A DNA stretch of 64,000 nucleotides from assembly GCA_964603595.1 (NCBI GenBank), contig CAZRVN010000004.1:148678-212677 (forward strand), read 5' to 3'. The translations under genes were made by a program, and so were the position numbers. Below, piece after piece: positions 8,700 to 31,248 of the stretch; position 1 is the stretch's first letter; each line of letters starts with the position of its first letter. Below the pieces are notes generated by a model, which saw nothing but the letters and a program-made list of their open reading frames with translations, was not told where the DNA came from and searched no databases. Source of the DNA: an uncultured Actinomycetota bacterium (GTDB lineage: Bacteria > Actinomycetota > Humimicrobiia > Humimicrobiales > Humimicrobiaceae).

Positions 8700-9662
8700 T
8701 ACCTATCAAATTTAAAATTAGGCAATTATCCCTTGACATCACGTATATAATCTGGTATGATTATAGCATGATGAAAGATAAATTTACAATAAAAGACTTC
8801 AACAAAATGTATCCAGACGACAATGCTTGTCTTGATGAAATCTTTAACAATCGTTATGGTCATTTAAAATCATGTCCTTCCTGTAAAAAGAAAACTAATT
8901 TCTATAGAATAGAAAACCGTAAGGTCTATTCCTGTCAATACTGCGGTTATCAGATTAGCCCATTAGCCGATACCATATTTCATAAATCCTCTACTAGTTT
9001 AAAAGATTGGTTCTATTCTATCTATCTATTCTCTGTATCTAAAAATGGTGTTTCTGCTAAAGAGTTGGAACGTCAACTCGGAGTTACCTATAAATGTGCT
9101 TGGAGAATAGCCAAACAGATAAGACAACTGTTCAAACAGAATAAGGATTTATTGTCAGACATCATTGAGATTGACGAGACATATATCGGTGGTAAGCATA
9201 AAGGCAAAAGAGGTCGTGGCTCTGAAAATAAGACTCCGGTTGTGGGTTTAGCTCAACGAAAAGGGAACCTTAAAGCCAAAGTAGTTTCTAATACCAATTC
9301 CTATACCGTCCAGAATATAATGAGAGATAGTGTCCAACTTGGCTCAAATATTATGACTGATGAATATAGAAGCTATAATGTAGTAAGAAAATTAGGCTTC
9401 AATCATCAAACAGTCAGTCATTTCAAAGAACAATGGGCTAACGGTATAGCACACACCAACACAATCGAGGGCTTCTGGTCTCAACTAAAAAGGTCAATCA
9501 ATGGTACTTATCACTGTGTTTCCCCGAAGTATCTTCAGTCTTATGTTGACGAGTTTGTCTATCGCTATAATAATCGTCTTTCCCCTTTCCCGATTTTTCT
9601 AAGTCTGGTCTTATCGGCTGGGAAGCACGTTTAATTATCAATTTAAATTGCTTTTTATCTAC
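8700..9662 (+). mobile_element. IS1595-family insertion sequence with approximate boundaries. The terminal inverted repeats were not resolved.
   Basis: It is a single-transposase IS and is AT-rich. A TTGACA-N17-TATAAT promoter lies just upstream of the transposase ATG. Palindromic AATTTAAATT motifs sit near both flanks. I could not assign the ends confidently. Confidence 0.4.
8768..9634 (+). CDS. IS1595-family transposase, with an N-terminal zinc ribbon and a DDE domain
   Basis: CPSCKKK...CQYCG zinc-ribbon motifs are present. The IEIDETYIGGKHKGKRGRG...TDEYRSYN...GIAHTNTIEGFWSQLKR stretch matches the DDE_Tnp_IS1595 pattern. Confidence 0.8.
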   Translation: MMKDKFTIKDFNKMYPDDNACLDEIFNNRYGHLKSCPSCKKKTNFYRIENRKVYSCQYCGYQISPLADTIFHKSSTSLKDWFYSIYLFSVSKNGVSAKELERQLGVTYKCAWRIAKQIRQLFKQNKDLLSDIIEIDETYIGGKHKGKRGRGSENKTPVVGLAQRKGNLKAKVVSNTNSYTVQNIMRDSVQLGSNIMTDEYRSYNVVRKLGFNHQTVSHFKEQWANGIAHTNTIEGFWSQLKRSINGTYHCVSPKYLQSYVDEFVYRYNNRLSPFPIFLSLVLSAGKHV

Positions 9663-18749: not shown

Positions 18750-19346
18750 TTACTCAGCACCTTCCAGAATATATACCAGCCCATAATTTTCAAACACCCT
18801 TTTCATCTCCTTTTCCGCCTCTATAAAGAGTGCTTCCGTATCAAGATAGAGCTTTTCTATTTTTGGCTCATCAAATGTGGAATAATTTCCGCTTTCATAA
18901 TATGACAGCACAAGATTTATGGTTTCAATGTCACTATCAATAAATTCCAGTTCATAATTATAAAAAGTCTCAAGCGGGGCCGGGATATTCTCAATAAGGA
19001 GTAATTTTTCCCTGTAACCGGTTACCGCATCACGCCTTTTAGATGCAAGCTCTTTTAGCTGGCCTACGTTTATAAACTCGCTGTCAAGTTCTTCTGATAA
19101 TTCAACTGTCTTTTCAATAAATTCATCCTTAAGCGGCCTGAACTTTTGGTAATACTCTGCAATCTCCCTCGCTTCTTCTGACTTTATCTCTTCAAGCATC
19201 TCAATTTCCCGCCTTGCCTCTTCTTCCAACTCTCTGCGGTTTTCTATTTTCTGCATCTCCATGGAAAATACATTGTATATTACAAGTGCTATAATAATTA
19301 TAACCAGTATCAATGCAGCTAATTTTTCTTTATTTAACTTACTCAT
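18750..19346 (-). CDS. Sortase-associated membrane-anchored coiled-coil protein (copy 1). Function unknown.
   Basis: It has an N-terminal transmembrane segment and an E/R-rich heptad region (EEEARREIEMLEEIKSEEAREIAEYY). It lies directly downstream of sortase 1. It is clearly paralogous to the ORF at 23936-24514. Confidence 0.6.
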   Translation of the reverse strand: MSKLNKEKLAALILVIIIIALVIYNVFSMEMQKIENRRELEEEARREIEMLEEIKSEEAREIAEYYQKFRPLKDEFIEKTVELSEELDSEFINVGQLKELASKRRDAVTGYREKLLLIENIPAPLETFYNYELEFIDSDIETINLVLSYYESGNYSTFDEPKIEKLYLDTEALFIEAEKEMKRVFENYGLVYILEGAE

Positions 19347-19354
19347 TTAATCCA

Positions 19355-20170
19355 TTATTTAACCTCGATAGATGCTATTTTGAGGGGATATATATTTATA
19401 AGTTCTGATATTAATACAATCCTCTCAGCTGCAGAATATTCCGGGTGGCATGAAGTAAGCAAAAGCTCTTTTTTACCAGTACCTTCCAGAATATATACAT
19501 CCTCTGGACCGACTATTTCCAATTCACTGACAGCATAGATAAAAGTCCCGCTTTCTGTCGTTTCAAGATAAATCAGGTCACCTTCAAGAAGTTCATCTAT
19601 CCTATTAAAGGGTGAGCCGTAAGTAGTCCTGTGACCGGAAATAGTGCACCTTCCGGTATCACCCGGAAGCGGGGTTCCCTCAATATGCCCCGGCCCACTT
19701 GTTAAAGTCAGTATGTCAGCCCCCTCGTTTACTATCCGCTCCAGCTTAATTCTGGGGATCTTAATCTTCAACGGGAAAAAGTCTTCCGCAGTTAGATTAC
19801 TGTAGTCTAATATTTCCCTACCAATATCAAAGCCAATTTCAATATCCCCGTAATCTGCAGTGTCCCGGCTGACGGACCCTTCCAGGGTTTTACCATCTTT
19901 AACGCTATCCTCTGAGGCAGTATTTTCTGAAGTGGTTCCAGAATCCCCTGCCAGCCCGGTTGTAGTGGCCCCCTCCTCTGATAGAGCCGCTTCCTGTGAT
20001 CCCCACTTTGATAAAATATCTTCCTGTCTCAATGTTGTTATGATATTTATATACAAGGGATATAATAAAAATAATATTACCGCGAAAGCTGCTAGAAACA
20101 ACGTTACCTTAATTATTCTTGACACTTTGACTTTTGAAAACTTTACTTTTTTCATATCATCAGGACGCAA
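19355..20170 (-). CDS. Sortase (copy 1)
   Basis: It has an N-terminal transmembrane anchor. The catalytic triad context is conserved, with His in GHRTTYG, Cys in LLLTSCHP (the TLxTC motif) and the following Arg. Confidence 0.8.
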   Translation of the reverse strand: MRPDDMKKVKFSKVKVSRIIKVTLFLAAFAVILFLLYPLYINIITTLRQEDILSKWGSQEAALSEEGATTTGLAGDSGTTSENTASEDSVKDGKTLEGSVSRDTADYGDIEIGFDIGREILDYSNLTAEDFFPLKIKIPRIKLERIVNEGADILTLTSGPGHIEGTPLPGDTGRCTISGHRTTYGSPFNRIDELLEGDLIYLETTESGTFIYAVSELEIVGPEDVYILEGTGKKELLLTSCHPEYSAAERIVLISELINIYPLKIASIEVK

Positions 20171-20213: not shown

Positions 20214-22100
20214 TTATTTATAAAAAATATTTGATACCCTGCTTAATGCATCTATGGCATGCTGCGTGGTATCAATCCGTATCCTGTTATCATCAACCCT
20301 GAATCTAATCGCCCCTTCTACTCTCTCAGGGTGTGAGAGATAGTACATATCCGTACCGTCAAACTGAAGATTGATTAGATTATGAACACCGAGAAGAATT
20401 GATTTTTCATATCTATACATCCTCCCGTAATCTTTATCAAGCTCAGCCAATTCATAAGCGTAGGTCAATCCTTCCACATAAACTCCAGTGCTGCCTGAAA
20501 AGGGCACGCCGTATTCGGGATTGTCCGGGTCATAAAATCTCCCCAGATAATCAATATATGGTTTCCCGTCCTGGTCCTGCATTTGGATAATCTTATCATT
20601 TAACTTAAAGATTGCATCCTTGTATTTACTGGAACCAGTAATTAAATACAGCTTATAAAGAGACATCGTATGCCAGGGAACATAAGCCGGAAAATAATTA
20701 GCATCCATAAGGTCAACATATTTATTGACATAGTAATCCTGGGATTTTATCGCTGCATCAAGATACTTTTCATCTCCTGTTTTTTCATACAGTTCTACCA
20801 TGCTCAATATAGCTTCGCCGCTGTAATAAGTCAGCAGTTCTTCTTCATCATAGGAGTAGCCGGGTTCAATATACCACGCCCCAAGGGAGCCATCTTCATT
20901 CTGGAGGTACTGTAATGTATTGGCAAGCTTTGTAGCTTCATCCCTGTACTGCTCAAAATATGGGCTGAAAACCAGGACTCTCAGAGCTATGCCAATTGCA
21001 CCGATTTTTGATTTATTTTTAAAATATATATACCCCATCTTGCCGTCTTCCTGGTACCAGTTTTTAAAAATATAATCCAGGTTTTCCTCATGCATCCGGA
21101 GTAGCTCATTATTTTCACTGCTTTTTTCAGCCAGCCATCTTGATGACATAAGCTGTCTTATCATATTATTGCCATCATAATATTCGCCTTTTGAAGGTTC
21201 GTACTGGTAATTAAAATAACCCTTGCTATTCAGGTTGGAAAGCATCCACGCTTCGGCAAGGTCAAGGGAGCTTTCTATTTTTTCGCTATCTATATCAGGC
21301 CTAAAATCAATTTCGTTACACCTGTAGAAAGTAGTAATCTCATCTGAAAACCTGGTGGTCGCAAAATGTATGGTGGGAAAATAATATATATTTGTTGAAC
21401 TATCACTGTAGCAATCCTCATCTAAGTCCGCCTTTTTACATAACTTTAGAAGCAATGTATCCAGACTATGATTTCCTTCAACGGCAACCGTATTATAATA
21501 AGTTGCTCCGCTTTCCCCTTTTTCTATCCTTAACCCATGAATTCCTTTTTCATAACCCCCGTCTAACTTTTTTTCATCTCCAAGGATAATTATCTCTATT
21601 TTCAGATCATCTATATCATCTTCGGTTATTCCTCCGAATCTAGCGTCCTCTATGGTCCTTAAAGCCGCGACATAGACACTTTCCGCCAGGTTATTTTTTC
21701 TTGCAGAATATGACCCCTTTTTGCATCCCTCTAAACCGAACCCGATAAATACCTTCCTATCTACATCATCATATTTTTCTAAAAATAAAGACTCCTCATC
21801 AACATCCGAACCCGAGAAATAGTCATCTATCGCCTTATACGCGACTTCCATCAAGTATTCTTTATCTTCGTAAGATAAATCAATGAATTCGCCCGAATCC
21901 ACTTCAATAGAGTTAACATATTTAGAAAATTCTTTTTCAAACCAGCTTTCGTAGTCGTCACCGACCACGCTTATGTCTATTTCGCCCTCCTTTTCCTCCC
22001 TGCACCCGGAGCACAGGTAAGCGAAAGGTAAAAATAAAAAAATCATAGAGATAAAAAGCAAGATAATCCTTACTGTAATTTTTTTTCCATACCCGGGCAT
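20214..22100 (-). CDS. Lipoprotein with a C-terminal alpha/alpha-toroid-like repeat domain. Function unknown. The start is reassigned to the Met at 22100.
   Basis: The Met at 22100 is preceded by a GGAGGG RBS and begins a signal peptide with lipobox LCSGC. The C-terminal half carries repeated aromatic D-G motifs (NEDGSLGAWY, QDQDGKPY) reminiscent of prenyltransferase or terpene-cyclase-type toroids. The track ORF starts at 22178. Confidence 0.5.
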   Translation of the reverse strand: MPGYGKKITVRIILLFISMIFLFLPFAYLCSGCREEKEGEIDISVVGDDYESWFEKEFSKYVNSIEVDSGEFIDLSYEDKEYLMEVAYKAIDDYFSGSDVDEESLFLEKYDDVDRKVFIGFGLEGCKKGSYSARKNNLAESVYVAALRTIEDARFGGITEDDIDDLKIEIIILGDEKKLDGGYEKGIHGLRIEKGESGATYYNTVAVEGNHSLDTLLLKLCKKADLDEDCYSDSSTNIYYFPTIHFATTRFSDEITTFYRCNEIDFRPDIDSEKIESSLDLAEAWMLSNLNSKGYFNYQYEPSKGEYYDGNNMIRQLMSSRWLAEKSSENNELLRMHEENLDYIFKNWYQEDGKMGYIYFKNKSKIGAIGIALRVLVFSPYFEQYRDEATKLANTLQYLQNEDGSLGAWYIEPGYSYDEEELLTYYSGEAILSMVELYEKTGDEKYLDAAIKSQDYYVNKYVDLMDANYFPAYVPWHTMSLYKLYLITGSSKYKDAIFKLNDKIIQMQDQDGKPYIDYLGRFYDPDNPEYGVPFSGSTGVYVEGLTYAYELAELDKDYGRMYRYEKSILLGVHNLINLQFDGTDMYYLSHPERVEGAIRFRVDDNRIRIDTTQHAIDALSRVSNIFYK

Positions 22101-22195
22101 TATATTCCCTCCTATTACCTTATGATACATAAACCCTTCCCGTATCATTTTTAAATTGTGCAACAAATTATACAACAATACTGGTTAAAATATAA

Positions 22196-22226
22196 AATAG
22201 CCCGGACAATATGCCCGTGCTATTTT
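22196..22226 (-). terminator. Bidirectional-looking intrinsic terminator hairpin (copy 1, slightly decayed)
   Basis: AAATAGCCCGGACAATATGCCCGTGCTATTTT forms a 9-10 bp stem flanked by an A-tract and a T-tract. It is a near-identical copy of the hairpin at 25288-25320 with one stem mismatch. Confidence 0.55.
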
Positions 22227-22248
22227 ATTTCATTTTATATAATACCTG

Positions 22249-22287
22249 TTACTTCCTCCTGAACTTCTTCCTAAGTGAAGCTATAAA
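22249..22287 (-). pseudogene. 3'-terminal remnant of an LPxTG surface-protein gene. Only the last 12 codons and the stop are conserved.
   Basis: The minus-strand translation ...FIASLRKKFRRK* matches the C-terminal tail FIASLKKKFRRK* of the 1453-aa LPFTG protein. It is followed by the same terminator hairpin, and the upstream reading frame is not conserved. Confidence 0.55.
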
Positions 22288-22307
22288 AAAACAGGAAAAG
22301 AGGCTGA

Positions 22308-22335
22308 TTGACTTATTTCACAATTAGTATATAAT
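22308..22335 (+). promoter_or_regulatory. Putative sigma-70 promoter for abiEi with an overlapping dyad
   Basis: TTGACT-16 nt-TATAAT lies 11 nt before the ATG. An AGTA...TACT dyad overlaps the -10 element and could be an autoregulatory operator. Confidence 0.4.
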
Positions 22336-22346
22336 ATGTACTAATT

Positions 22347-22979
22347 ATGAATCAAGTTAAAAAAATTAAAAAACTGGAAAATCTCAGCTATTTTAATAAA
22401 GATACCATATCGCAGTTTGTTGATATAAATAAAAACGCTCTTTCGCAAGACGTTAAGAGATGGATTCAAAATGGTACTTTAATACAGCTAAAAAAGGGGT
22501 TTTATGTTACCTCAAATTATTTTGAAAGACTGGGAAACAAAACTCCATACCTTGAATTTATATCAAACAAACTGAGGGAGCCGTCATATCTAAGTCTGGA
22601 ATATATTTTACAAAAATACGGAGTATTAACGGAATCAATCTATTCTATTAATTCCATAACCATCAAATCAAGTAGAATATATAGAAACAATCTTGGTCTT
22701 TTTATATACAGGAATATAAAAGATGAGCTTTTTACAGGTTTTAATATCACGGAAAAAAATGGCTTTATAGTTAAGGAATCTACAAAAGCCAAGGCCCTTT
22801 TTGACTGGCTCTATTTAAGAATGTTAAGATTTAAAAAAATAGACCTTGCTGTGATGGAATCATTCAGATTGAATCTTGAAAACTTTAAGAAAAAAGATTT
22901 TAAGGAATTTAAAATATATTGTGAGCTTGCAGGTATAAAAAAATATTTAAAACTTGCAGAGATAATTAAAAAAATATAA
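22347..22979 (+). CDS. abiEi: AbiEi-like antitoxin/transcriptional regulator (type IV TA / abortive infection)
   Basis: 210 aa. It lies directly upstream of a DUF1814/AbiEii-family nucleotidyltransferase gene with a 10-nt gap. Its size and position fit AbiEi. Confidence 0.6.
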   Translation: MNQVKKIKKLENLSYFNKDTISQFVDINKNALSQDVKRWIQNGTLIQLKKGFYVTSNYFERLGNKTPYLEFISNKLREPSYLSLEYILQKYGVLTESIYSINSITIKSSRIYRNNLGLFIYRNIKDELFTGFNITEKNGFIVKESTKAKALFDWLYLRMLRFKKIDLAVMESFRLNLENFKKKDFKEFKIYCELAGIKKYLKLAEIIKKI

Positions 22980-22989
22980 CTGCTATAAA

Positions 22990-23841
22990 ATGATTTATAG
23001 AGAACTAGAAAAAATATTAATCGAAGAAAGAGACAGAGGCTCGCATGATGCTTATATCCTTAACTTATTAAAGGAGTATCTTCAGGTATATGTACTCTAC
23101 TTTATCTATACAAATTCTAAATATAATAAAAATCTTATTTTTACCGGCGGCACCTGCCTAAGACATTTTTATAATCTGCCGAGACTTTCAGAAGACATAG
23201 ATTTTGATTTTAAGGAGAATTTTGACCGTAAGATTTTGCTTGATGACCTTGAAGAATATTATAAAAAAAGATATAAGTATAATGAAATAAAGCTGGCTTT
23301 AAAGCAGCGCGGAGAACAGATATTGCTAAAGTTTCCAGTTTTACATAAACTGGGTCTGGCAGAAGAAGATAAAAGCAATCTGCTATTTGTAAAGCTCGAT
23401 TTTTCAGTAAACCCATCAAAATACTTTAACCTCGAGACTACTTCAAAATCCATTTATGGTTTTAATTTTGCGGCAGTTCATTATGACCTGTCTTCCCTTA
23501 TGTCCGGCAAAATACACGCTATTTTGGTAAGAAAAATATTTAAGGGTATCAATAATACCGAAGTGATTAGAGGCAGGGATTATTTTGACCTCCTATGGTT
23601 CTTAAAAAAATCTATCAGACCCAATCTAAAAAGACTTTCAGAAATGCTTGGCACCAGCATTAGCATGAATTTTCTTGTAAAACAACTGGATTTAAAAGTT
23701 AAGGAGCTTGCCAGGAAACATAAGTCATTTTTAAAATCTGACATTGCCCCACTTATAAGCAGCCCTGATTTTATAAAAATCTATGTGGATAATTATTACG
23801 AGGAATACATGAGAAATAAAAAGAATCTCTTCCAGGAATAA
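22990..23841 (+). CDS. abiEii: AbiEii/AbiGii-family nucleotidyltransferase toxin
   Basis: It carries LIFTGGTCLRHFYNLPRLSEDIDFDF, the GG[ST]xL and [DE]x[DE] nucleotidyltransferase motifs typical of AbiEii (DUF1814). The product is 283 aa. Confidence 0.7.
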   Translation: MIYRELEKILIEERDRGSHDAYILNLLKEYLQVYVLYFIYTNSKYNKNLIFTGGTCLRHFYNLPRLSEDIDFDFKENFDRKILLDDLEEYYKKRYKYNEIKLALKQRGEQILLKFPVLHKLGLAEEDKSNLLFVKLDFSVNPSKYFNLETTSKSIYGFNFAAVHYDLSSLMSGKIHAILVRKIFKGINNTEVIRGRDYFDLLWFLKKSIRPNLKRLSEMLGTSISMNFLVKQLDLKVKELARKHKSFLKSDIAPLISSPDFIKIYVDNYYEEYMRNKKNLFQE

Positions 23842-23935
23842 AATAAATATAAAGTCTTATTTTAATTCCTTAATAGCTTTGCATATATCTCATTCAATCA
23901 TTATGATTCTACTTTTTCCATTAATAATGATTAAT

Positions 23936-24514
23936 TTACTCAAAAAGATATCTCATCTCATATTGTCTGCATACATTATATAACTCTTCCTCAGCCCTCT
24001 GGTAAAGCAAACCGGTTTTCAGGTAAAGCTCATTTAAGATACTGCTATTATATGTTGAGTAGCTTTCACTGTCATAATATGAAAGCACAAGCCCGATGGT
24101 TTCAATATCGCTTTTTATAAATTCAAGCTCATAGTCATGGAAAGTTTCAAGCGGGGAAGGGACGCTCTCAATCATAAGAAATTTATCCCTGAATGCAATT
24201 GCAGCATCAAGCCGGCGAGATACAAGCTCTTTTATCCGGTCTATATTTACAAACTCGCTTTCCATCTCTTCTGATAATTCAATCGTTTCTTTGATAAATT
24301 CATCCCTGGCAGGCTCAAACTCAAGATAATATTCTACAACCTCTCTCGCTTCTTCTAACTTTATCTCCTCAAGCATCTCCCTTTTGAGCCGTTCTTCTTC
24401 TCTGGCTTCTCTCTCTGCTGCTATCTTCCCGTGTTCAACAAGGATAACATTAAGACCGACCAGAATAACTGCTGCTAAAAGAATTACAAGGGCTATTTTA
24501 CTTTTTCCTTTCAT
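23936..24514 (-). CDS. Sortase-associated membrane-anchored coiled-coil protein (copy 2)
   Basis: It is paralogous to the ORF at 18750-19346 (AEREAREEERLKREMLEEIKLEEAREVVEYY). Its start overlaps the sortase 2 stop by 4 nt (ATGA). Confidence 0.6.
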   Translation of the reverse strand: MKGKSKIALVILLAAVILVGLNVILVEHGKIAAEREAREEERLKREMLEEIKLEEAREVVEYYLEFEPARDEFIKETIELSEEMESEFVNIDRIKELVSRRLDAAIAFRDKFLMIESVPSPLETFHDYELEFIKSDIETIGLVLSYYDSESYSTYNSSILNELYLKTGLLYQRAEEELYNVCRQYEMRYLFE

Positions 24515-25230
24515 TTCACCCCTCCATAAATATCCAGACCCATCGGATAGAGATTCAGGAGCTCAGAGATTACAACCAGTCTTTTCGCACCGGAATATTT
24601 CGGATGGCAGGTTGTAAGCAAAAGTTCCTTCTTATATGAGCCCTCAAGTATATATACATCTTCGGGGCTAACGATATCCATACCTGTAACAGCATACACG
24701 AATAATTCCTCCTTAATAGTTTCCAGATAAATAAGGTCTCCTTCTTCAAGCTCATCAATCCTGTTAAAAGGCGAGCCGTAAGTCGTTCTGTGGCCGGATA
24801 TCGTACACCTCCCGGTATCTCCGGGAAGCGGCGTTTCAGAGATATGGCCGGGCCCCTGCTCTAGGGATTGGGGTTCCGCCCCCTCCCAGGAAACAAGCTC
24901 AAGGCCTATCCGCGGGATAGTCAGTTTCGCAGGAAAAAAATCCCCCGATGTTAATGCACTATAATCCAGGCCGCCATTAATCTCATATTGTGCACCACCG
25001 CCGGAAGTGTTAAAAGTCTCCATGTCTGCTTCCGCACCACTGCTATCTTCGTCTGCTTTTTCTTCTTCAAGTAAAGCTTCTTTACCTTCCTCCCACTGTG
25101 ATAAATAAGACGCCCTTTCCTTTTCGGTTAAAATATTTGAATAAATAAGGTAAAAAAGAAATGACACAGTCAGTACAGCAAAAATACAAAGCAGAATAAT
25201 CTTTATTTTTTGTTTCCTGGTTTTATCCAT
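24511..25230 (-). CDS. Sortase (copy 2)
   Basis: It has a transmembrane anchor and the motifs GHRTTYGSPFNRIDEL and LLLTTCHP. It is about 75 percent identical to sortase 1 across the catalytic domain. Confidence 0.8.
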   Translation of the reverse strand: MDKTRKQKIKIILLCIFAVLTVSFLFYLIYSNILTEKERASYLSQWEEGKEALLEEEKADEDSSGAEADMETFNTSGGGAQYEINGGLDYSALTSGDFFPAKLTIPRIGLELVSWEGAEPQSLEQGPGHISETPLPGDTGRCTISGHRTTYGSPFNRIDELEEGDLIYLETIKEELFVYAVTGMDIVSPEDVYILEGSYKKELLLTTCHPKYSGAKRLVVISELLNLYPMGLDIYGGVK

Positions 25231-25287: not shown

Positions 25288-25320
25288 AAAATAGCCCGGA
25301 CAATATGCCCGGGCTATTTT
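25288..25320 (-). terminator. Intrinsic terminator downstream of the LPFTG protein gene
   Basis: AAATAGCCCGGACAATATGCCCGGGCTATTT forms a perfect stem flanked by an A-tract and a T-tract. It lies 23 nt after the stop codon. Confidence 0.7.
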
Positions 25321-25342: not shown

Positions 25343-28300
25343 TTACTTCCTTCTGAACTTCTTTTTCAGTGAAGCTATGAACATTGCCAGTCCACCCAGT
25401 ATTATGGAAACACCGGATATTGGAATAGCAGGATTCATTCCAGTGAATGGAAGTTCCGTAATACCCAATACCTCTATCCCACCATCAGGAGGTGTCTTGG
25501 AGTTAGTTCTGCTGAAACTATGGTTTCTCTTAGCCGAATTAACTTCTATTCCAGTAATATCACTCATTTTTGAATAACCTGACGGCACGGTAGTTTCTAC
25601 AATTCTGTAGGTACCGAATGGGAGATTTCCCCAGCTTACAGTACCATTTCCGGTTATCTTCTTTTCTCCGCCAACTGCAGCACCATTTGAATCATACAGG
25701 GTAAATCCTGCAACATCGGTAGAGTCAAGCCCGCTCTTTGTAAGGGTTACCGAACCACGATAGCTAACCTTTTTCGTGTTTTCTCTGTCAAAGGTGTAGC
25801 TCTGCTGGCCTTCATTTCTGGAATCAATAACTATTCCGGTAATATCTGCTATAGTATTATATCCGGAAGGAGTGGTTGTTTCCTTTATTGAGTATGTATC
25901 CCACTCAAGATCCGTCCAGACAACCGAACCGTTACCTGTTACCGTCTTTTCTCCTCCTACAGGATTATTACTTGAATCATACAGTGTAAATCCTGCAGTA
26001 TCATCATAATCAAGACCGCTCTTATTAAGTGTTATATCTCCAGGTATCCTCGGGTCAGCTATTTCCTGCGTAAGGATAACATTCGGAGTTTCGCTATTCA
26101 AACCAAATACAAACTCACCGATAGGCGGATTCCCGAAAAGCAGATATCCCGCTGGAGCACTTGCTTCTACCACTTTATAAGTTCCATATGGCAAGTCTAT
26201 CCATTTGTAGTGGCCATCAGGACCAAGGATCTGTGTATCAACCAGAATCCATGAACCCTCTCTATACAATTCAAATGTTGATCCGCCAAGAGGCAGCCCT
26301 GTAACAGCATCAGTCTTGAATATTTCAATGGAGCCCTTCTCGGCACAGTTCTCTATAACTACGGGAACTTCTGCACCTATATCACCTTCAATTGTTCCTG
26401 ACCATACCGGATTAGAAACTGTGTAGGTATATAAATTGGTTATTCCATTAAAGTCTTCAAGTATGTAGTAATCACCATAAGGAAGGTCTATCCAGCTTGC
26501 AGTTCCGCCGTTTGATACTGTCTGCGGTGAAGTAGCGATCAGGTTATCACTAGAATCATACAGTGACAGATTTGCCTCATCGTCTCCTTCAAGCCCTATC
26601 TTTGTAACTGTAATGGAGCCCTTCTCTGCAGTGTTTACCACTTCGACCGTAGGATTTTCGTTATCCGGACCGATAACTACCGGGTCGGATGATAGGTCTG
26701 TTGTGTAAGTAAATACGTTACCTGAAGGATAACTCTCTGTTAGGGTATAAGAGCCAAATGGAAGGTCAATCCATCCACCTGTTCCACCTTCACTCAGAGT
26801 GATATCAGTATAAGGGCCACCAGGGCCAGAAAGTGAGAATATTGCCTGGTCGCTCTCTTCCAGTCCAGTCTTGTGAACCGAAATGGAACCCTTCTCGGCA
26901 GTATTAGTTATAGTATCAGTTTCATCACCATCAACAGTGATATTAGCTACCGGATTAGAAACCGTATAGGTATATACGTTGGTTATTCCATTAAAGTCTT
27001 CAAGTATGTAGTAATCACCATAAGGAAGATCTATCCAGCTTGCAGTTCCGCCGTTTGATACTATCTGCGGTGAAGTGGCAATCAGGTTATCACTAGAATC
27101 ATACAGCGAAAGGTTTGCCTGATCATTACCTTCAAGACCTGTCTTTGTAACTGTAATTGAACCCTTCTCGGCAGTGTTGACTACCTCAATCGTCGGCCAT
27201 GTATTATCCGGGCCAATTATTATAGGATCGGACGAGAGGTCTGTTGTGTAAGTATATACGTTACCAGACGGATATGTTTCGGTTAAAGTGTAGCTACCAT
27301 ATGGCAGTTGTTGCCAGTGAATACTTCCATGATTCCATATCGACGCACCACCATAAGATACTCCGCCTGGGCCTGTAAGTGTAAAGGTCGCCCTATCGCT
27401 TCCCTCAAGACCTGTCTTGTGGACCGTAAGGTCGCCCATCTCGGCAGTGTTAGTTATGGTGTCAGTCTCATCACCATCAACGGTAATGTTTGCAACAGGA
27501 TTAGAAACCGTATAGGTATAGACGTTGGTTATTCCATTAAAGTCTTCGACTATATAGTAGCCGCCGTAAGGAAGGTCTATCCAGCTTGCCAATCCACCAT
27601 TTGATACTGTCTGCGGTGAAGTGGCAATCAGGTTATCACTAGAATCATACAGTGAAAGGTTTGCCTGATCATTACCTTTAAGACCCATCTTTGTAACCGT
27701 AATGGAGCCCATCTCGGCAGTGTTAGTTATGGTATCAGTTTCATCACCATTAACGGTAATATCAGCAACAGGATTAGAAACCGTATAGGTATATACGTTG
27801 GTTATTCCATTAAAGTCTTCGACTATATAGTAGCCGCCATAAGGAAGATCTATCCAGCTTGCCAATCCACCATTTGATACTGTCTGTGGTGAAGTGGCGA
27901 TCAGGTTATCACTAGAATCATACAGCGAGAGGTTTGCCTCATCGTCTCCTTCAAGACCTGTCTTTGTAACTGTAATGGAGCCCAAAGGACAATCTACGAT
28001 ATCTTCAACTGCATTTAATGCGCCACCTGTCATGAATAATGCGGTTCCTCCGATATAAACAGTATAAGTAGCCGTATCAACGGCGTATCCCGGAGGAGCA
28101 CTTTCTTCAGTTAACGAATATGTACCCCATGGCAGTCCATCTATAAATGCATTGCCATCCACATCTGTGGTTAAAGTATATTCCGTTACATCAGGTGTGA
28201 AAGTCTGGCCGCCGATATAGGTCAGCTTGTATACCGCACCTTCAACCGGACCCTGGGTCTCGGAATCAGTCTTGTTAAGCTCAAAGCTTCCCCATGCAGT

Positions 28301-29704
28301 ATAAGTGCCGGAATCGTCATCACACGGCTCACTGTAGCTTTCTATAACGAATCTCTGGTCGTATGCTTCGGGGTATGTGATTTCCTCATCATGCCATTCC
28401 CTATCTTCAAAGTAGTAGCCAGCAGGTTTGGTAACCGAAGGGGCACCATTTTCCCAATGACTCCATACTATACCAGTCTCTTGTGTCCAGTATGTACCTA
28501 TCCAAACATCTTCATACGTCCCATAAATTCCGTCCTGTCCCTGTTTTTCAGTAACTACCATCTTACCGGCATTGAAATAGTCAATATCCACATTATCCGG
28601 ATTTTCAGTAATTACATCTCCATTTACGTCAGTTGCAACTATATGCGGGGAATTATAAGATCCCGGATCCTCTGTATCATCATAATCAGGATTTTCAATA
28701 GTCTGTATAACATTCATATTTGAATTGAACTCATCAAGGTCTTCTCCCTGTTCCTTGTCAATCTCTCCATCCTCATCAATATCAAGACATGCGCCTATGT
28801 TAACAGACATTTCCTCAAATTCGGAATAACCTTCTCCCCACCAGTAGAAATAGTATGGGATGCTTGCAAAACCGTAATTATCATCGGTTATCGCGCCATC
28901 GCCATCGGTATCCTCGGCATTACTGCCGTCATTATCATCCTCGTAATCATACATAGTGGAAGTAGTTTCAAGTACAAGGTCCGTCTGTGAAAAACTGACA
29001 TTATATGAACCCAAGAGCACATACCAGGAAACAGTTTTACCTTCATCGGTAATACCCGGAACCAGAGGATTTTCCATTGTAGCAGTAGCTTCAAATTCAT
29101 TATAATCGCCATTTTCATCTACCAGAGTATCCGCATCAAGGGCCACTTCTACTTCATTTACATTTTCATCATCCAGATATTCCTGCAACGACACGTCATT
29201 ACTAGGATCAGTATCATTGTTTTCAGGCAGTGCGACAAAACCATCTGCCATGGTCATAACTGCAAGTACTACTTCTTCCACATCATCATTAGGAGTGTAG
29301 TCCACATTATTATCTATTATATCCCACACAGCATCCTGATTTTGACCATCGGTAGCACCTGTAGCAGTTGTTGCCATGATCTCGGCTGCCTCAGCATTTA
29401 CTTCATCAACACCATTTGCCTGAAGCTCATCCGATACATCCGTACCTGTTTCGCTGTAAGCATCCGTAGCGTCGGTCAAGGTTACATCTTCATCCACACA
29501 ATAAACATCCATCTCTTCACCTGCAGGCGCCTCCTCAGGTTCATCGGAATAATCAGCATCATTAGGATCCATTTCATATTGGCCATTATCCGGTCCTTCT
29601 GCAGTTGAATTATCACCGGGTTCACCAAATAGGAAAGATGGTGCTGTGAAGAATACGATAAGAACAATCCCCAGGCATAACGCCATAAGTCTTTTTAATT
29701 TCAT
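25343..29704 (-). CDS. Giant sortase-anchored surface protein. It has a signal peptide, an acidic region, tandem Cna-B/SpaA-like domains and an LPFTG sorting signal.
   Basis: 1453 aa. The signal peptide reads MKLKRLMALCLGIVLIVFFTAPSFLFG. The N-terminal 300 aa are D/E-rich. SpaA-type motifs TYxxxExxAPxGY occur (TYKVVEASAPAGY, TYRIVETTVPSGY). The C-terminus reads ELPFTGMNPAIPISGVSIILGGLAMFIASLKKKFRRK, which is a sorting motif, a transmembrane segment and a basic tail. Confidence 0.85.
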   Translation of the reverse strand: MKLKRLMALCLGIVLIVFFTAPSFLFGEPGDNSTAEGPDNGQYEMDPNDADYSDEPEEAPAGEEMDVYCVDEDVTLTDATDAYSETGTDVSDELQANGVDEVNAEAAEIMATTATGATDGQNQDAVWDIIDNNVDYTPNDDVEEVVLAVMTMADGFVALPENNDTDPSNDVSLQEYLDDENVNEVEVALDADTLVDENGDYNEFEATATMENPLVPGITDEGKTVSWYVLLGSYNVSFSQTDLVLETTSTMYDYEDDNDGSNAEDTDGDGAITDDNYGFASIPYYFYWWGEGYSEFEEMSVNIGACLDIDEDGEIDKEQGEDLDEFNSNMNVIQTIENPDYDDTEDPGSYNSPHIVATDVNGDVITENPDNVDIDYFNAGKMVVTEKQGQDGIYGTYEDVWIGTYWTQETGIVWSHWENGAPSVTKPAGYYFEDREWHDEEITYPEAYDQRFVIESYSEPCDDDSGTYTAWGSFELNKTDSETQGPVEGAVYKLTYIGGQTFTPDVTEYTLTTDVDGNAFIDGLPWGTYSLTEESAPPGYAVDTATYTVYIGGTALFMTGGALNAVEDIVDCPLGSITVTKTGLEGDDEANLSLYDSSDNLIATSPQTVSNGGLASWIDLPYGGYYIVEDFNGITNVYTYTVSNPVADITVNGDETDTITNTAEMGSITVTKMGLKGNDQANLSLYDSSDNLIATSPQTVSNGGLASWIDLPYGGYYIVEDFNGITNVYTYTVSNPVANITVDGDETDTITNTAEMGDLTVHKTGLEGSDRATFTLTGPGGVSYGGASIWNHGSIHWQQLPYGSYTLTETYPSGNVYTYTTDLSSDPIIIGPDNTWPTIEVVNTAEKGSITVTKTGLEGNDQANLSLYDSSDNLIATSPQIVSNGGTASWIDLPYGDYYILEDFNGITNVYTYTVSNPVANITVDGDETDTITNTAEKGSISVHKTGLEESDQAIFSLSGPGGPYTDITLSEGGTGGWIDLPFGSYTLTESYPSGNVFTYTTDLSSDPVVIGPDNENPTVEVVNTAEKGSITVTKIGLEGDDEANLSLYDSSDNLIATSPQTVSNGGTASWIDLPYGDYYILEDFNGITNLYTYTVSNPVWSGTIEGDIGAEVPVVIENCAEKGSIEIFKTDAVTGLPLGGSTFELYREGSWILVDTQILGPDGHYKWIDLPYGTYKVVEASAPAGYLLFGNPPIGEFVFGLNSETPNVILTQEIADPRIPGDITLNKSGLDYDDTAGFTLYDSSNNPVGGEKTVTGNGSVVWTDLEWDTYSIKETTTPSGYNTIADITGIVIDSRNEGQQSYTFDRENTKKVSYRGSVTLTKSGLDSTDVAGFTLYDSNGAAVGGEKKITGNGTVSWGNLPFGTYRIVETTVPSGYSKMSDITGIEVNSAKRNHSFSRTNSKTPPDGGIEVLGITELPFTGMNPAIPISGVSIILGGLAMFIASLKKKFRRK
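26317..27982 (-). repeat. Tandem near-identical repeats of about 280 bp inside the surface-protein gene
   Basis: Protein-level units of about 92 aa (GSITVTKTGLEG.D.ANLSLYDSSDNLIATSPQTVSNGG.ASWIDLPYG.YYI.EDFNGITNVYTYTVSNPVA.ITV.GDETDTITNTAE) recur four times. They are interleaved with two copies of a related B unit. Long stretches are visibly identical at the nucleotide level. Confidence 0.8.
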
Positions 29705-29754: not shown

Positions 29755-30060
29755 TATTTTTTCCCCCTCTTTATTTTAGGTTAATTTATTATTTAAAACC
29801 GACCCCCATAGCCAGTTGAGTTATTTTTAAAAATCCCTATATAAATACAAAAACCGACTACATTTAGTCGGTTTCGCTATTTGCTCCTCTTTTCTCAAGC
29901 GTCCAAATTAGAGAAAAGCATCAAAGCTACTAAATCAAAAATTAAGCTATTTCTTCCTTTGCTCTCTATTCAATAAAAGTATTTTATAAATTTTATATAA
30001 CTATAATATTTAAGTGATGAAATTATACTACATCTTTAAGAAAAATACCAAACTTTTTTT
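29705..30060 (-). promoter_or_regulatory. Promoter plus structured 5' leader (copy 1 of a duplicated ~200-bp element) upstream of the LPFTG protein gene
   Basis: On the minus strand there is a -35/-10-like pair near 30040-30010. Hairpin B (CTTTTCTC...GAGAAAAG, 29888-29918) comes next. Hairpin A (CCGACT-N6-AGTCGG, 29854-29871) follows and is trailed by UUUUU. Confidence 0.5.
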
Positions 30061-30177
30061 ATAAAACTGTTATTTTAATAAAACTATAGTCAGACATTTT
30101 TTATATATCTATAATACAATATTCTAATTATAAAATGCCCTTATATTAAAATCACCTTATAATTTATTACTTATATC

Positions 30178-31248
30178 CTAAAAATCCACTTCAACTCCCG
30201 CATCCCTTAATTCATCTACCTGGCTTTCATCTGCAACAGGATTGCCTTTAATATAAAGCTTCTGTAAATTCGGAAGTTCCTTTAAAGCTGAGATGTCTGT
30301 TATTTCATTATCTTCCAGCCAGAGTGATTCAAGGCTTTTAATCTTTGAAAGTGATGAAATATCAGATATCTTATTCTTTGAAAGAGCCAGCTGCTTTAGA
30401 TTTTCCAACTCTGCCAGCGGTGATATATCTTCTATCTCACACTCGCTGAGACTTACAATCTCTAATTTTTCCATTTCACCCAGCGCTGATATATCTGATA
30501 ACGGGTTATTGCCCAGCATAATTAATACAAGATTAGATAAGCTTGATAACGGGCTGATATCTGATACATTATTGTTAGCCAGGGAAAGGTTCTTTAGATT
30601 TTTTAATTCAGATATAGCGCCAACATCTGCTATCTGGTTCCTGTTTAAACCCAGAACCTCTAAATTAGTAAGTTCTAATAAAGAGGGGATATCTACAATC
30701 AGATTATTATCCAGAACAGCCACCTTTAATTTATCAAGACCTATTAATGGAGAGATGTCTAATATTTCATTTTTGCCCAGACTGACACTTTCTAAATTTA
30801 CTAAATCCTCAAGCGGTCCTATATCTGTTATTTTATTATCATTCAGCCCGAGATTTGCAAGACTGTTAATATTAGAAAGAGGTGATATGTTACTGATTAG
30901 ATTACCATTTAGATTTAATATACGTAGTTTTGTAAGTTTTGACAGGGGTGATATATCAGTTATTTCATTATTGTTTAAACTTAGATTTTCTAAGTTTACA
31001 GCATCTTCAACGCCTGAGATAGTTTTTATCTCCATATTGTCTGCAAATAATTTATCCATTGACTCCATATCTTCAGCGCTTATTTCTTCACCGGTTATGC
31101 CCAGCTCTTCCTTCTCAGCTTTTAAAAGGTTCGGGTCGCTTGCTCTCTTAAATAAACTGCATCCCGGAATACTAACTGATATAATTAACGCTAAAATAAA
31201 TACCGGTGCTGCATAAATAAATTTTTTCATATATATCTTATGTTCCAT
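30178..31248 (-). CDS. Leucine-rich-repeat (internalin-like, 22-residue LRR) lipoprotein
   Basis: About 12 tandem LRRs of the form NLxxLxLxxNxIxDISPLxxLxxL are present. The N-terminus MEHKIYMKKFIYAAPVFILALIISVSIPGC is a signal peptide with a lipobox Cys. The track ORF start at 31341 would read through a terminator hairpin and is rejected. Confidence 0.75.
   Translation of the reverse strand: MEHKIYMKKFIYAAPVFILALIISVSIPGCSLFKRASDPNLLKAEKEELGITGEEISAEDMESMDKLFADNMEIKTISGVEDAVNLENLSLNNNEITDISPLSKLTKLRILNLNGNLISNISPLSNINSLANLGLNDNKITDIGPLEDLVNLESVSLGKNEILDISPLIGLDKLKVAVLDNNLIVDIPSLLELTNLEVLGLNRNQIADVGAISELKNLKNLSLANNNVSDISPLSSLSNLVLIMLGNNPLSDISALGEMEKLEIVSLSECEIEDISPLAELENLKQLALSKNKISDISSLSKIKSLESLWLEDNEITDISALKELPNLQKLYIKGNPVADESQVDELRDAGVEVDF

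Follow-up and report, generated by a model that had tools for sequence, protein, structure and literature searches.

A probable self-regulated AbiE toxin–antitoxin cassette with a 53-bp operator-like palindrome over its promoter and start codon

How could a two-gene toxin–antitoxin pair hold its own expression in check when only a few nucleotides separate its promoter from its first codon? The question is raised by an AbiEi/AbiEii gene pair in a 64,000-nucleotide stretch of an uncultured Actinomycetota bacterium of the family Humimicrobiaceae (GenBank assembly GCA_964603595.1, contig CAZRVN010000004.1, positions 148,678 to 212,677), the whole of which we call the window. The first-pass annotation had described the pair from the letters alone; its open reading frame (ORF) coordinates, its sequence statements and its flanking sortase genes were all correct on re-reading. 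We consider it quite likely that the locus is a self-contained AbiE toxin–antitoxin cassette of ~1.55 kb, autoregulated via a 53-bp operator. The two genes are as follows.

22347..22979, + strand: abiEi, 210 aa (ORF list; PADLOC, AlphaFold2, Foldseek)
22990..23841, + strand: abiEii, 283 aa, putative DUF1814 nucleotidyltransferase toxin (Pfam, PADLOC, motifs)

abiEi stands immediately 5′ of the DUF1814 gene in the same orientation, giving a bicistronic layout with the antitoxin gene first and a gap of 10 nt. An AbiEii homologue lies directly 3′ of abiEi in 79 of 83 loci, and AbiEii identity tracks AbiEi identity.

Searching Pfam, we find that the downstream protein matches PF08843 (COG2253) with an E-value of 2.2e-19 and 70.8 bits (cutoff 22.5). 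The first-pass annotation had named this gene AbiEii after its GGTxL...SEDIDFDF signature, and the hidden Markov model (HMM) check that it proposed is thereby passed. The PADLOC AbiEii model PDLC02293 also matches residues 24-276 (E 1.4e-33), and the protein contains FTGGTCLRHFYNLPRLSEDIDFDF. A profile of 34 homologues reached the PDB entries 4o8s/4ok0 (E 6e-7) and 6y56 (E 8e-4) across motifs I/II and IV. The search labels these entries only as "Putative" or "Uncharacterized protein"; we take 4o8s/4ok0 to be JHP933 of Helicobacter pylori and 6y56 to be MenT4 of Mycobacterium tuberculosis.

Four motifs were read in the protein, namely G53-G54 (I), R65/S67/D69/D71 (II), K174/R181 (III) and D197 within R196-D197 (IV). 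Motifs I (hG[G/S]) and II (R-x-[S/T]-x-D-h-D) are those of polymerase-beta nucleotidyltransferases, III (K...R) and IV (D) are those of the family, and the definitions are based on mutagenesis (Dy 2014). In an alignment of the 34 homologues the motif residues are invariant or nearly so, with Ser67 invariant. Mutagenesis found G49, R63, D67, D69, K173, R180 and D192 essential in the Streptococcus agalactiae AbiEii (Dy 2014, PMC3985639); judged by pattern, spacing and HMM alignments to 4o8s and 6y56, their equivalents here are G53/G54, R65, D69, D71, K174, R181 and D197. By family and motifs, the downstream gene is a predicted AbiEii/DUF1814 nucleotidyltransferase.

The upstream protein was identified by defence-system profiles and by its modelled fold. 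The PADLOC model PDLC02241 matches residues 9-208 of its 210 (E 2.1e-40), and 16 further AbiEi models match as well. The AlphaFold2 model, made with 32 homologues, has a predicted local distance difference test (pLDDT) score of 91.4 and a predicted template-modelling (pTM) score of 0.86. Performing Foldseek comparisons against 350,542 PDB chains, we obtained S. agalactiae AbiEi (6y8q_A) as the top match (E 4.6e-4, probability 1.00, 208 columns); M. tuberculosis Rv2827c (1zel_A) also matched with a probability of 0.99, and the remaining matches are winged-helix regulators. PDB sequence searches with the single sequence and with a 32-member profile gave no match, so that only the structure comparison tied the protein to 6y8q and 1zel. 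Going by profile and model, the upstream protein is a divergent AbiEi-type antitoxin/regulator (COG5340) that current Pfam and NCBIfam models miss.

The control region of the pair holds the following elements.

22308..22313, + strand: -35 hexamer TTGACT, which also forms the outer end of the left half-site of the operator
22330..22335, + strand: -10 hexamer TATAAT, after a 16-nt spacer; straddles the palindrome centre at 22334
22332-22337, + strand: alternative -10 hexamer TAATAT, with an 18-nt spacer
22322..22346: perfect core dyad AATTAGTA-N9-TACTAATT with 8-bp arms, enclosing AGTA-N9-TACT
22308..22333: left half-site TTGACTTATTTCACAATTAGTATATA, 26 nt, proposed site of one AbiEi monomer
22335..22360: right half-site TATGTACTAATTATGAATCAAGTTAA, 26 nt, holding the predicted transcription start, the ATG and codons 2-5 (M-N-Q-V-K)
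22287..22307, + strand: A-rich stretch AAAAACAGGAAAAGAGGCTGA, directly 5′ of the -35 hexamer, partly kept in the closest relatives only

Promoter-like hexamer pairs are common in this DNA (17 found vs 11.5 ± 3.0 expected). TTGACT-16-TATAAT scores 11/12 against the consensus and is one of only two that good in 2.4 kb. Its -10 hexamer is exactly 11 nt from the ATG (22336-22346), as the first-pass annotation had read directly from the sequence. That annotation had also pointed to a dyad, AGTA (22326-22329)-N9-TACT (22339-22342), overlapping the -10 hexamer. The dyad is present, but it is not the full extent of the operator, and a 4-bp dyad in DNA of 30% G+C (GC) content is uninformative alone. 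Around it and its 8-bp core runs a 53-bp palindrome, 22308-22360, with 26-nt arms that are 81% complementary and 1 nt (22334) between them. This palindrome begins at the -35 hexamer, has the -10 hexamer at its centre, ends inside abiEi codon 5, and is the top-scoring one in the window. Allowing up to 3 mismatches, we counted 8 half-site matches in the window vs 5.9 expected, and only the promoter pair is real; since the half-site is not above chance elsewhere in the window, there is no sign of a wider regulon.

The same region sets one end of what is conserved. DNA similarity to distant loci sets in where the -35 hexamer does (22307/22308) and lasts to ~23810-23823; even syntenic relatives cease to align ~12-15 nt upstream of that hexamer. 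These limits, at the -35 hexamer and near the abiEii stop, make the conserved unit a stretch from promoter to stop codon of ~1.55 kb. The A-rich stretch at 22287..22307 may be an UP-like element and the left boundary of the conserved module; upstream of it, all similarity ends. No intrinsic terminator was predicted after abiEii.

Comparing 90 nt upstream of the abiEi relatives, we find that the composite TTGACTT-ATTTCACAATTAGTA-TATAAT-..-TACTAATT-ATG-AATCAAGT recurs in loci with a protein identity of no more than 45-60%. An alignment of 33 loci spans 56 nt with zero gaps, and the palindrome centre lies at -13 in all of them. They include Actinomycetota, lineages of the Candidate Phyla Radiation (CPR), Margulisiibacteriota, Saganbacteria and others. 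TTGAC stands at exactly -39 from the start codon in 29 of the 33, and TATAAT or TATATAAT is kept at the palindrome centre.

The two arms also change together. With G-T accepted, they pair in 80.5% of cells across the 33 loci, a share that drops to 31-37% once either arm is shifted by 1-3 nt relative to the other. Under strict Watson-Crick pairing the figure is 72.1%, vs 24-29% slid and 65.5 ± 0.8% shuffled, and 0/1000 shuffles reach it. Both-sided changes number 53 cells vs 23 ± 3.5 in column shuffles (0/500 as high), covariation counts that common ancestry inflates. At least two Watson-Crick pair types occur at 8 of the 26 positions, and whole arms have switched in relatives (AATTAGTA/TACTAATT, AATTGGTA/TACCAATT and ACTGTA/TACAGT). 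The first-pass idea that AbiEi autoregulates through an inverted repeat in its promoter gains support here: the repeat is conserved and co-varies across the 33 loci, as expected of an AbiEi operator (Dy 2014, PMC3985639; Beck 2020, PMC7319586), and on this pattern it probably is one.

The symmetry runs into the coding region. The right-arm core TTATG is the reverse complement of left-arm CACAA with one mismatch (CATAA), and three loci with a GTG start restore CAC. The third base of codon 2 co-varies with column 12 of the promoter spacer, 36 bp upstream: this column is T in 10/10 cases when codon 2 is AAA (Lys) and A in 11/20 when it is AAT (Asn). Loci with the entire palindrome 5′ of the ATG (centre -24; L026, L033, L036, L038 and L044) have R-I, R-V, K-I or A-T in place of Gln3-Val4, which is near-invariant in the remaining loci. 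We regard this loss of Gln3-Val4 when the palindrome leaves the coding region as suggestive, the loci in question being a separate clade. The start codon and codons 2-5 thus appear to belong to the operator, in an apparent case of dual coding.

We surveyed the architecture of 80 genome loci. Nearly all of them have a 40-55-bp palindrome at or beside the start codon, and its placement varies.

Centre -13, TTGAC at -39 (the window's type): L004-L043
Centre -24 or -30, TTGAC ~30 nt further upstream: L025, L026, L033, L036
Centre 0 or +3 (on the ATG), TTGAC at -38 or -35, CACAAT a possible -10 hexamer: L045, L050, L052, L053, L056, L069
Centre -18 or -25, perfect 17-24-bp arms of different sequence ending in ATG, Anaerolineae-type: L054, L065, L068, L077, L079

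L059 and L071 are also listed in the group centred on the start codon. The Anaerolineae-type group also takes in L062, L067 and L081; its arms (e.g. ATATAGGATAATAGACA) are mostly centred at -18/-25, with several running into the ATG. In L020, L028 and L041, TTGAC has moved 12-13 nt further upstream and the half-site has not moved. The conservation of the half-site is therefore independent of any role as a -35 region.

Three AbiEi/AbiEii modules of the window's subfamily occur in one Patescibacteria metagenome-assembled genome (MAG), JAHIPV01 (isolate KR13_S3.mb.84), two of them within ~8 kb on the same contig.

L020, 4001-5435: AbiEi/AbiEii module of JAHIPV01
L069, 4001-5444: AbiEi/AbiEii module of JAHIPV01
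L041, 4001-5445: AbiEi/AbiEii module of JAHIPV01

Their operators differ, with a AATTAGTA-type centred at -13 vs a GAATTACTACT-type centred on the ATG. This fits operator divergence that insulates paralogous modules in one genome from cross-repression.

How would such a site be read by AbiEi? In S. agalactiae, the operator TGTTGCTTTTATACCACAAATAT-N3-AAAATTGTAGTGTAAAAGCAACA (23-N3-23) is bound cooperatively by two AbiEi monomers at IR1/IR2, and the promoter is repressed (PMC3985639; PMC7319586). The window shares with that system (SAG1284/SAG1285; 6Y8Q) the bicistronic order with the antitoxin gene first, the two-domain AbiEi fold, a DUF1814 toxin with motifs I-IV, and an operator of two ~23-26-bp inverted repeats, 1-3 bp apart, over the promoter and transcription start. 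The half-site core TTTCACAATTAG also resembles the S. agalactiae IR1 core TACCACAAATAT (PMC3985639), both being CACAA(A/T)T-like. From the same geometry and the similar CACAA(A/T)T core, we infer two AbiEi monomers on 22308-22360.

The two systems differ in several respects. The AbiEi proteins are 13% identical, and that of the window has no Pfam AbiEi match; the host here is an uncultivated AT-rich actinobacterium. The S. agalactiae genes overlap by 4 nt, whereas those of the window are 10 nt apart. In S. agalactiae transcription starts 26 nt 5′ of the ATG (PMC3985639), giving a 26-nt leader, whereas in the window the ATG follows the -10 hexamer after 11 nt, and the start codon and codons 2-5 fall within the right half-site. 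The phospho-acceptor is Thr65 in S. agalactiae, and its putative equivalent in the window is Ser67.

The 11 nt after the -10 hexamer hold no Shine-Dalgarno-like motif, and the predicted mRNA shows no structure over its first ~23 nt. Transcription is predicted to start at ~22340-22344, which would leave a 3-7-nt leader, shorter still with the alternative -10 hexamer. A leaderless-type start of the abiE mRNA is therefore plausible. Elsewhere in the window, a Shine-Dalgarno-like 4-5-mer precedes only 14 of 42 long ORFs (with crude start calls). Other genes with a TATAAT-like hexamer ~10-20 nt from the called ATG and no Shine-Dalgarno motif are the ORFs near 8768 (+), 35668 (+), 52753 (-) and 22148 (-). 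Short-leader or leaderless transcripts may be common in the source genome.

In the mechanism that we propose, two AbiEi monomers, one per 26-nt half-site, would place their winged helices on 22308-22360. Bound AbiEi would cover the -35 and -10 hexamers, the transcription start and the start codon and exclude RNA polymerase, keeping the operon low and self-limited. An mRNA starting 3-7 nt or less 5′ of the ATG, with no Shine-Dalgarno motif, would be translated in a leaderless-like manner, and abiEii, 10 nt downstream, would presumably be translationally coupled. By homology with the MenT toxins and S. agalactiae AbiEii, AbiEii would add nucleotides to tRNA 3′ ends, and translation would stop. 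The AbiEi C-terminal domain would neutralise AbiEii, with Ser67 as the candidate phospho-acceptor equivalent. What the analysis shows is the family and fold of the proteins, the intact catalytic motifs, the pairing of the genes, and the geometry of the operator together with its conservation and covariation; we infer AbiEi DNA binding, repression, the transcription start, toxicity, neutralisation and any anti-phage role.

For the last step of neutralisation, the S. agalactiae system offers a precedent: antitoxin binding induces AbiEii auto-phosphorylation at Thr65, and AbiE has been reclassified as type VII (bioRxiv 10.64898/2026.01.19.700257). The phospho-acceptors AbiEii T65, MenT3 S78 and MenT1 T39 each lie two residues before the first motif II aspartate. 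Ser67 occupies an R-x-S-x-D-x-D position, the likely equivalent by spacing, and it is invariant in the 34 homologues. MenT4 has a residue at the position, yet is reported not to be phosphorylated (bioRxiv 10.64898/2026.01.19.700257).

A bolder proposal, to which we give somewhat less than an even chance, is that in this AbiEi subfamily a single rigid unit of 53 bp combines the -35 hexamer, the operator, the -10 hexamer, the transcription start and the start codon. In such a unit M-N/K-Q-V would be dual-coded and the mRNA effectively leaderless, and no host-specific ribosome-binding site or external regulator would be needed. Regulatory and coding information would then share the same bases, with an apparent constraint on the N-terminal codons. 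If true, this may explain how a ~1.55-kb module occurs with base-for-base identical spacing in Actinomycetota, many CPR/Patescibacteria, Margulisiibacteriota, Saganbacteria and MAGs labelled proteobacterial, and may help explain how the cassette functions after transfer between phyla.

Two other relatives help to place the cassette. The M. tuberculosis MenAT and Rv2827c/Rv2826c systems (1ZEL, 6Y56) likewise pair DUF1814 toxins with COG5340-type antitoxins, and Rv2827c binds 23-bp inverted repeats over its own promoter (PMC7319586). Rv2827c differs in its larger C-terminal domain and in its operator, where four repeats are spaced by 13-bp gaps and bound non-cooperatively or with negative cooperativity; the window has one repeat pair with a 1-nt gap, as S. 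agalactiae does and unlike Rv2827c. The AbiE of Lactococcus lactis pNP40 belongs to the same two-gene family and is its founding system and the source of the 'Abi' (abortive infection) label. It is plasmid-borne with a demonstrated phenotype vs 936-type phages, whereas the window's subfamily has the label by homology. The general picture of AbiE systems is unchanged: this is an ordinary AbiE module whose notable feature is the 53-bp control site. The comparative operator model (half-site, spacing, covarying positions) lets the two-monomer paradigm of S. agalactiae be tested in a very distant branch.

Several points weigh against an autoregulated AbiE cassette. No Pfam family, AbiEi_1, AbiEi_3 and AbiEi_4 included, matches the AbiEi protein at E ≤ 1, and NCBIfam TAA_AbiEi (NF047376) scores 27.3 bits against a cutoff of 150. 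The AbiEi model and 6y8q are 13% identical with a TM-score of 0.45-0.47, which is not a tight superposition. An equal palindrome score turned up in 2/30 random 64-kb sequences of window composition and in 6/30 of local AT-rich composition (Markov nulls). Taken alone, the palindrome is at most marginally beyond chance for a 64-kb search; it is where it lies and how relatives conserve it that make it significant, and common ancestry adds to the covariation counts. Operator distance correlates with protein distance alike for the N- and C-terminal domains of AbiEi (rho 0.59 and 0.61). As both domains correlate equally, this is phylogenetic signal only, and co-evolution of the winged helix-turn-helix with the operator was dropped as evidence. 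The transcription start is a prediction only. Finally, the S. agalactiae AbiE gave E. coli no protection from 32 coliphages (bioRxiv 10.64898/2026.01.19.700257).

We judged the Pfam and NCBIfam misses to be a sensitivity limit of the models and not evidence against homology. AbiEi_4 is weakly touched by 22 of 32 AbiEi relatives (best E 9.4e-4), the window protein not being among them. As for the first-pass claim that the upstream gene is AbiEi, the identity held up through PADLOC and structure, and the proposed check against Pfam AbiEi_3/AbiEi_4 gave no match. Read literally, its rule that an upstream protein with no AbiEi-domain match is not AbiEi would have wrongly rejected a true one. The moderate TM-score of the model fits inter-domain flexibility, since domain orientation differs by ~65 degrees between solved AbiEi-family structures (PMC7319586).

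Relatives of the protein are numerous. There are 373 AbiEi homologues in the protein database at E ≤ 1e-3, with no Pfam annotation among the 120 matches listed. The closest come from Actinomycetota MAGs, and others at 50-60% identity belong to WWE3, Beckwithbacteria, Microgenomates, other CPR lineages and Margulisiibacteriota. In genomes chosen to represent species, the loci closest to it carry the labels Candidatus Humimicrobiales and Candidatus Hydromicrobium, which makes a Humimicrobiia-class actinobacterium the probable source of the window, and an identical protein occurs on metagenome contigs of the Joint Genome Institute (JGI) with the gene context of the window. A collection of plasmids from cultured bacteria held only ~30%-identical relatives. 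This large AbiEi subfamily, invisible to Pfam and under the NCBIfam thresholds, is found mostly in uncultivated Actinomycetota and CPR bacteria, where its members usually appear as "hypothetical" proteins; being missed by the models, it leads annotation pipelines to undercount AbiE systems in those lineages.

Is the cassette an anti-phage system at all? A genuine AbiEi/AbiEii pair could serve mainly as a chromosomal toxin–antitoxin module, for growth control or stabilisation of its neighbourhood, and have no phage phenotype. We consider this unlikely, though it is the alternative that holds up best, and the 32-coliphage result speaks for it too. Several Humimicrobiales-like species have abiE in synteny, apparently by vertical inheritance, and it is not in an obvious defence island (its neighbours are ligA, sortase genes, a pilin gene and an AMMECR1/GH127-like gene). 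A scan of viral contigs returned no AbiEi relatives, and S. agalactiae AbiE stabilises plasmids (PMC3985639). Against such a role, both proteins score strongly with the defence models of PADLOC. Abortive infection has been demonstrated for the AbiE of L. lactis, and AbiE is counted as one of the most abundant defence systems (bioRxiv 10.64898/2026.01.19.700257). The GC content, ~10 points lower than in the flanks, and the cross-phylum spread suggest horizontal spread, typical of defence genes. The terms 'abortive infection', used in the first-pass annotation, and 'type IV' are labels by homology, the S. agalactiae AbiE now being type VII.

The same annotation had taken the location of abiE between two sortase cassettes as the mark of a recombination hot spot, where abiE would be a recent insertion. 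Sortase genes (Pfam Sortase) do lie on either side, at 19355..20170 and 24511..25230. The GC content is 27-33% within the module vs 39-47% in the flanks. Gene content left of abiE varies, a 654-aa gene and the second sortase cassette being present or absent in relatives, and near-identical terminator hairpins stand at 22192-22228 and 25288-25320. However, abiE keeps the same position in L004-L010, at 77-91% protein identity: in L004, L005, L008 and L009 it is followed by the same 19x-aa gene, a sortase gene and SpaA-type pilin genes, and in L006, L007 and L010 it adjoins ligA. This synteny in related species makes abiE a long-standing resident and not a recent insertion. Protein identity between the two cassettes is no higher than 51-53%, a sign that the duplication is old. 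Synteny and paralogue divergence both speak against the hot spot, which is left unsupported and which we hold to be improbable. The adjacent ORFs include no integrase or transposase gene. Manual reading of the module flanks found no direct repeats, the edge at 23842-23935 having had no dedicated repeat search.

Could the palindrome be something other than an AbiEi operator, either a by-product of an AT-rich promoter joined to conserved N-terminal codons, or a site of a host regulator or recombinase? Chance alone yields palindromes of comparable score in 7-20% of random 64-kb sequences, and promoter hexamers with a TATATA-rich centre are intrinsically self-complementary. The symmetry, however, reaches well beyond the hexamers, and 8/26 positions switch Watson-Crick pair type and stay complementary. 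The spacer base that co-varies with codon 2 and the half-site retained where the -35 hexamer has moved argue the same way. The element accompanies the gene pair across phyla with very different host factors, and other clades have different, equally long palindromes at the same place. We therefore think a by-product or a foreign site very unlikely, and an AbiEi operator remains our reading of the 53 bp.

Least likely of all, with hardly any probability left to it, is that the inverted repeat acts as a DNA cruciform or as an RNA hairpin sequestering the start codon: the single strand does fold at -8.6 kcal/mol (z-score -3.2 vs shuffles), and in the minority architecture of L026, L033 and L036 the whole palindrome is 3′ of the promoter and would be transcribed, but the AT-rich stem is weak, the 5′ end of the predicted mRNA lacks structure, Rfam gave no match at the abiE locus, and in the window's architecture the left arm holds the -35 hexamer, 5′ of any plausible start, and leaves no RNA hairpin to form.

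The genes around the cassette have features of their own, listed here.

18750-20170, - strand: two-gene cassette, sortase (271 aa), then a 198-aa protein
20214-22178, - strand: 654-aa protein with AMMECR1 (residues 112-269) and a GH127 beta-L-arabinofuranosidase-like region (410-530)
22192-22228 and 25288-25320: GC-cored hairpins AAAATAGCCCGGACA-N3-TGCCCG(G/T)GCTATTTT
23936-25230, - strand: duplicate two-gene cassette, sortase (239 aa), then a 192-aa protein
25343..29704, - strand: 1453-aa SpaA-type LPXTG pilin/adhesin gene
29857-29940, - strand: c-di-GMP-II riboswitch (Rfam RF01786), 57.9 bits
31273-31357, - strand: c-di-GMP-II riboswitch (Rfam RF01786), 61.9 bits

The paralogues of the two cassettes are 51% and 53% identical. 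The 198- and 192-aa proteins have an N-terminal membrane helix and no Pfam family, and their pairing with a sortase recurs in the MAGs L004, L005, L008 and L009; on this recurrence, they may be a conserved uncharacterised sortase partner. The 654-aa protein is an unusual combination of domains, and its gene adjoins abiE in the window and in L006 and is absent from other relatives.

The two hairpins are the second and third best palindromes in the window. One is 3′ of the pilin gene; the other lies between the abiE promoter and the 654-aa gene and resembles a terminator when read on the minus strand. Both may derive from a single terminator that was copied when the cassette was duplicated, and the abiE promoter would be insulated by the upstream one.

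Both riboswitches score above the gathering score of 53.5 bits. One aptamer is directly 5′ of the 1453-aa pilin/adhesin gene and the other is 5′ of 30177..31248 (-). Their placement suggests cyclic di-GMP (c-di-GMP) control of sortase-dependent surface structures in this actinobacterial lineage.

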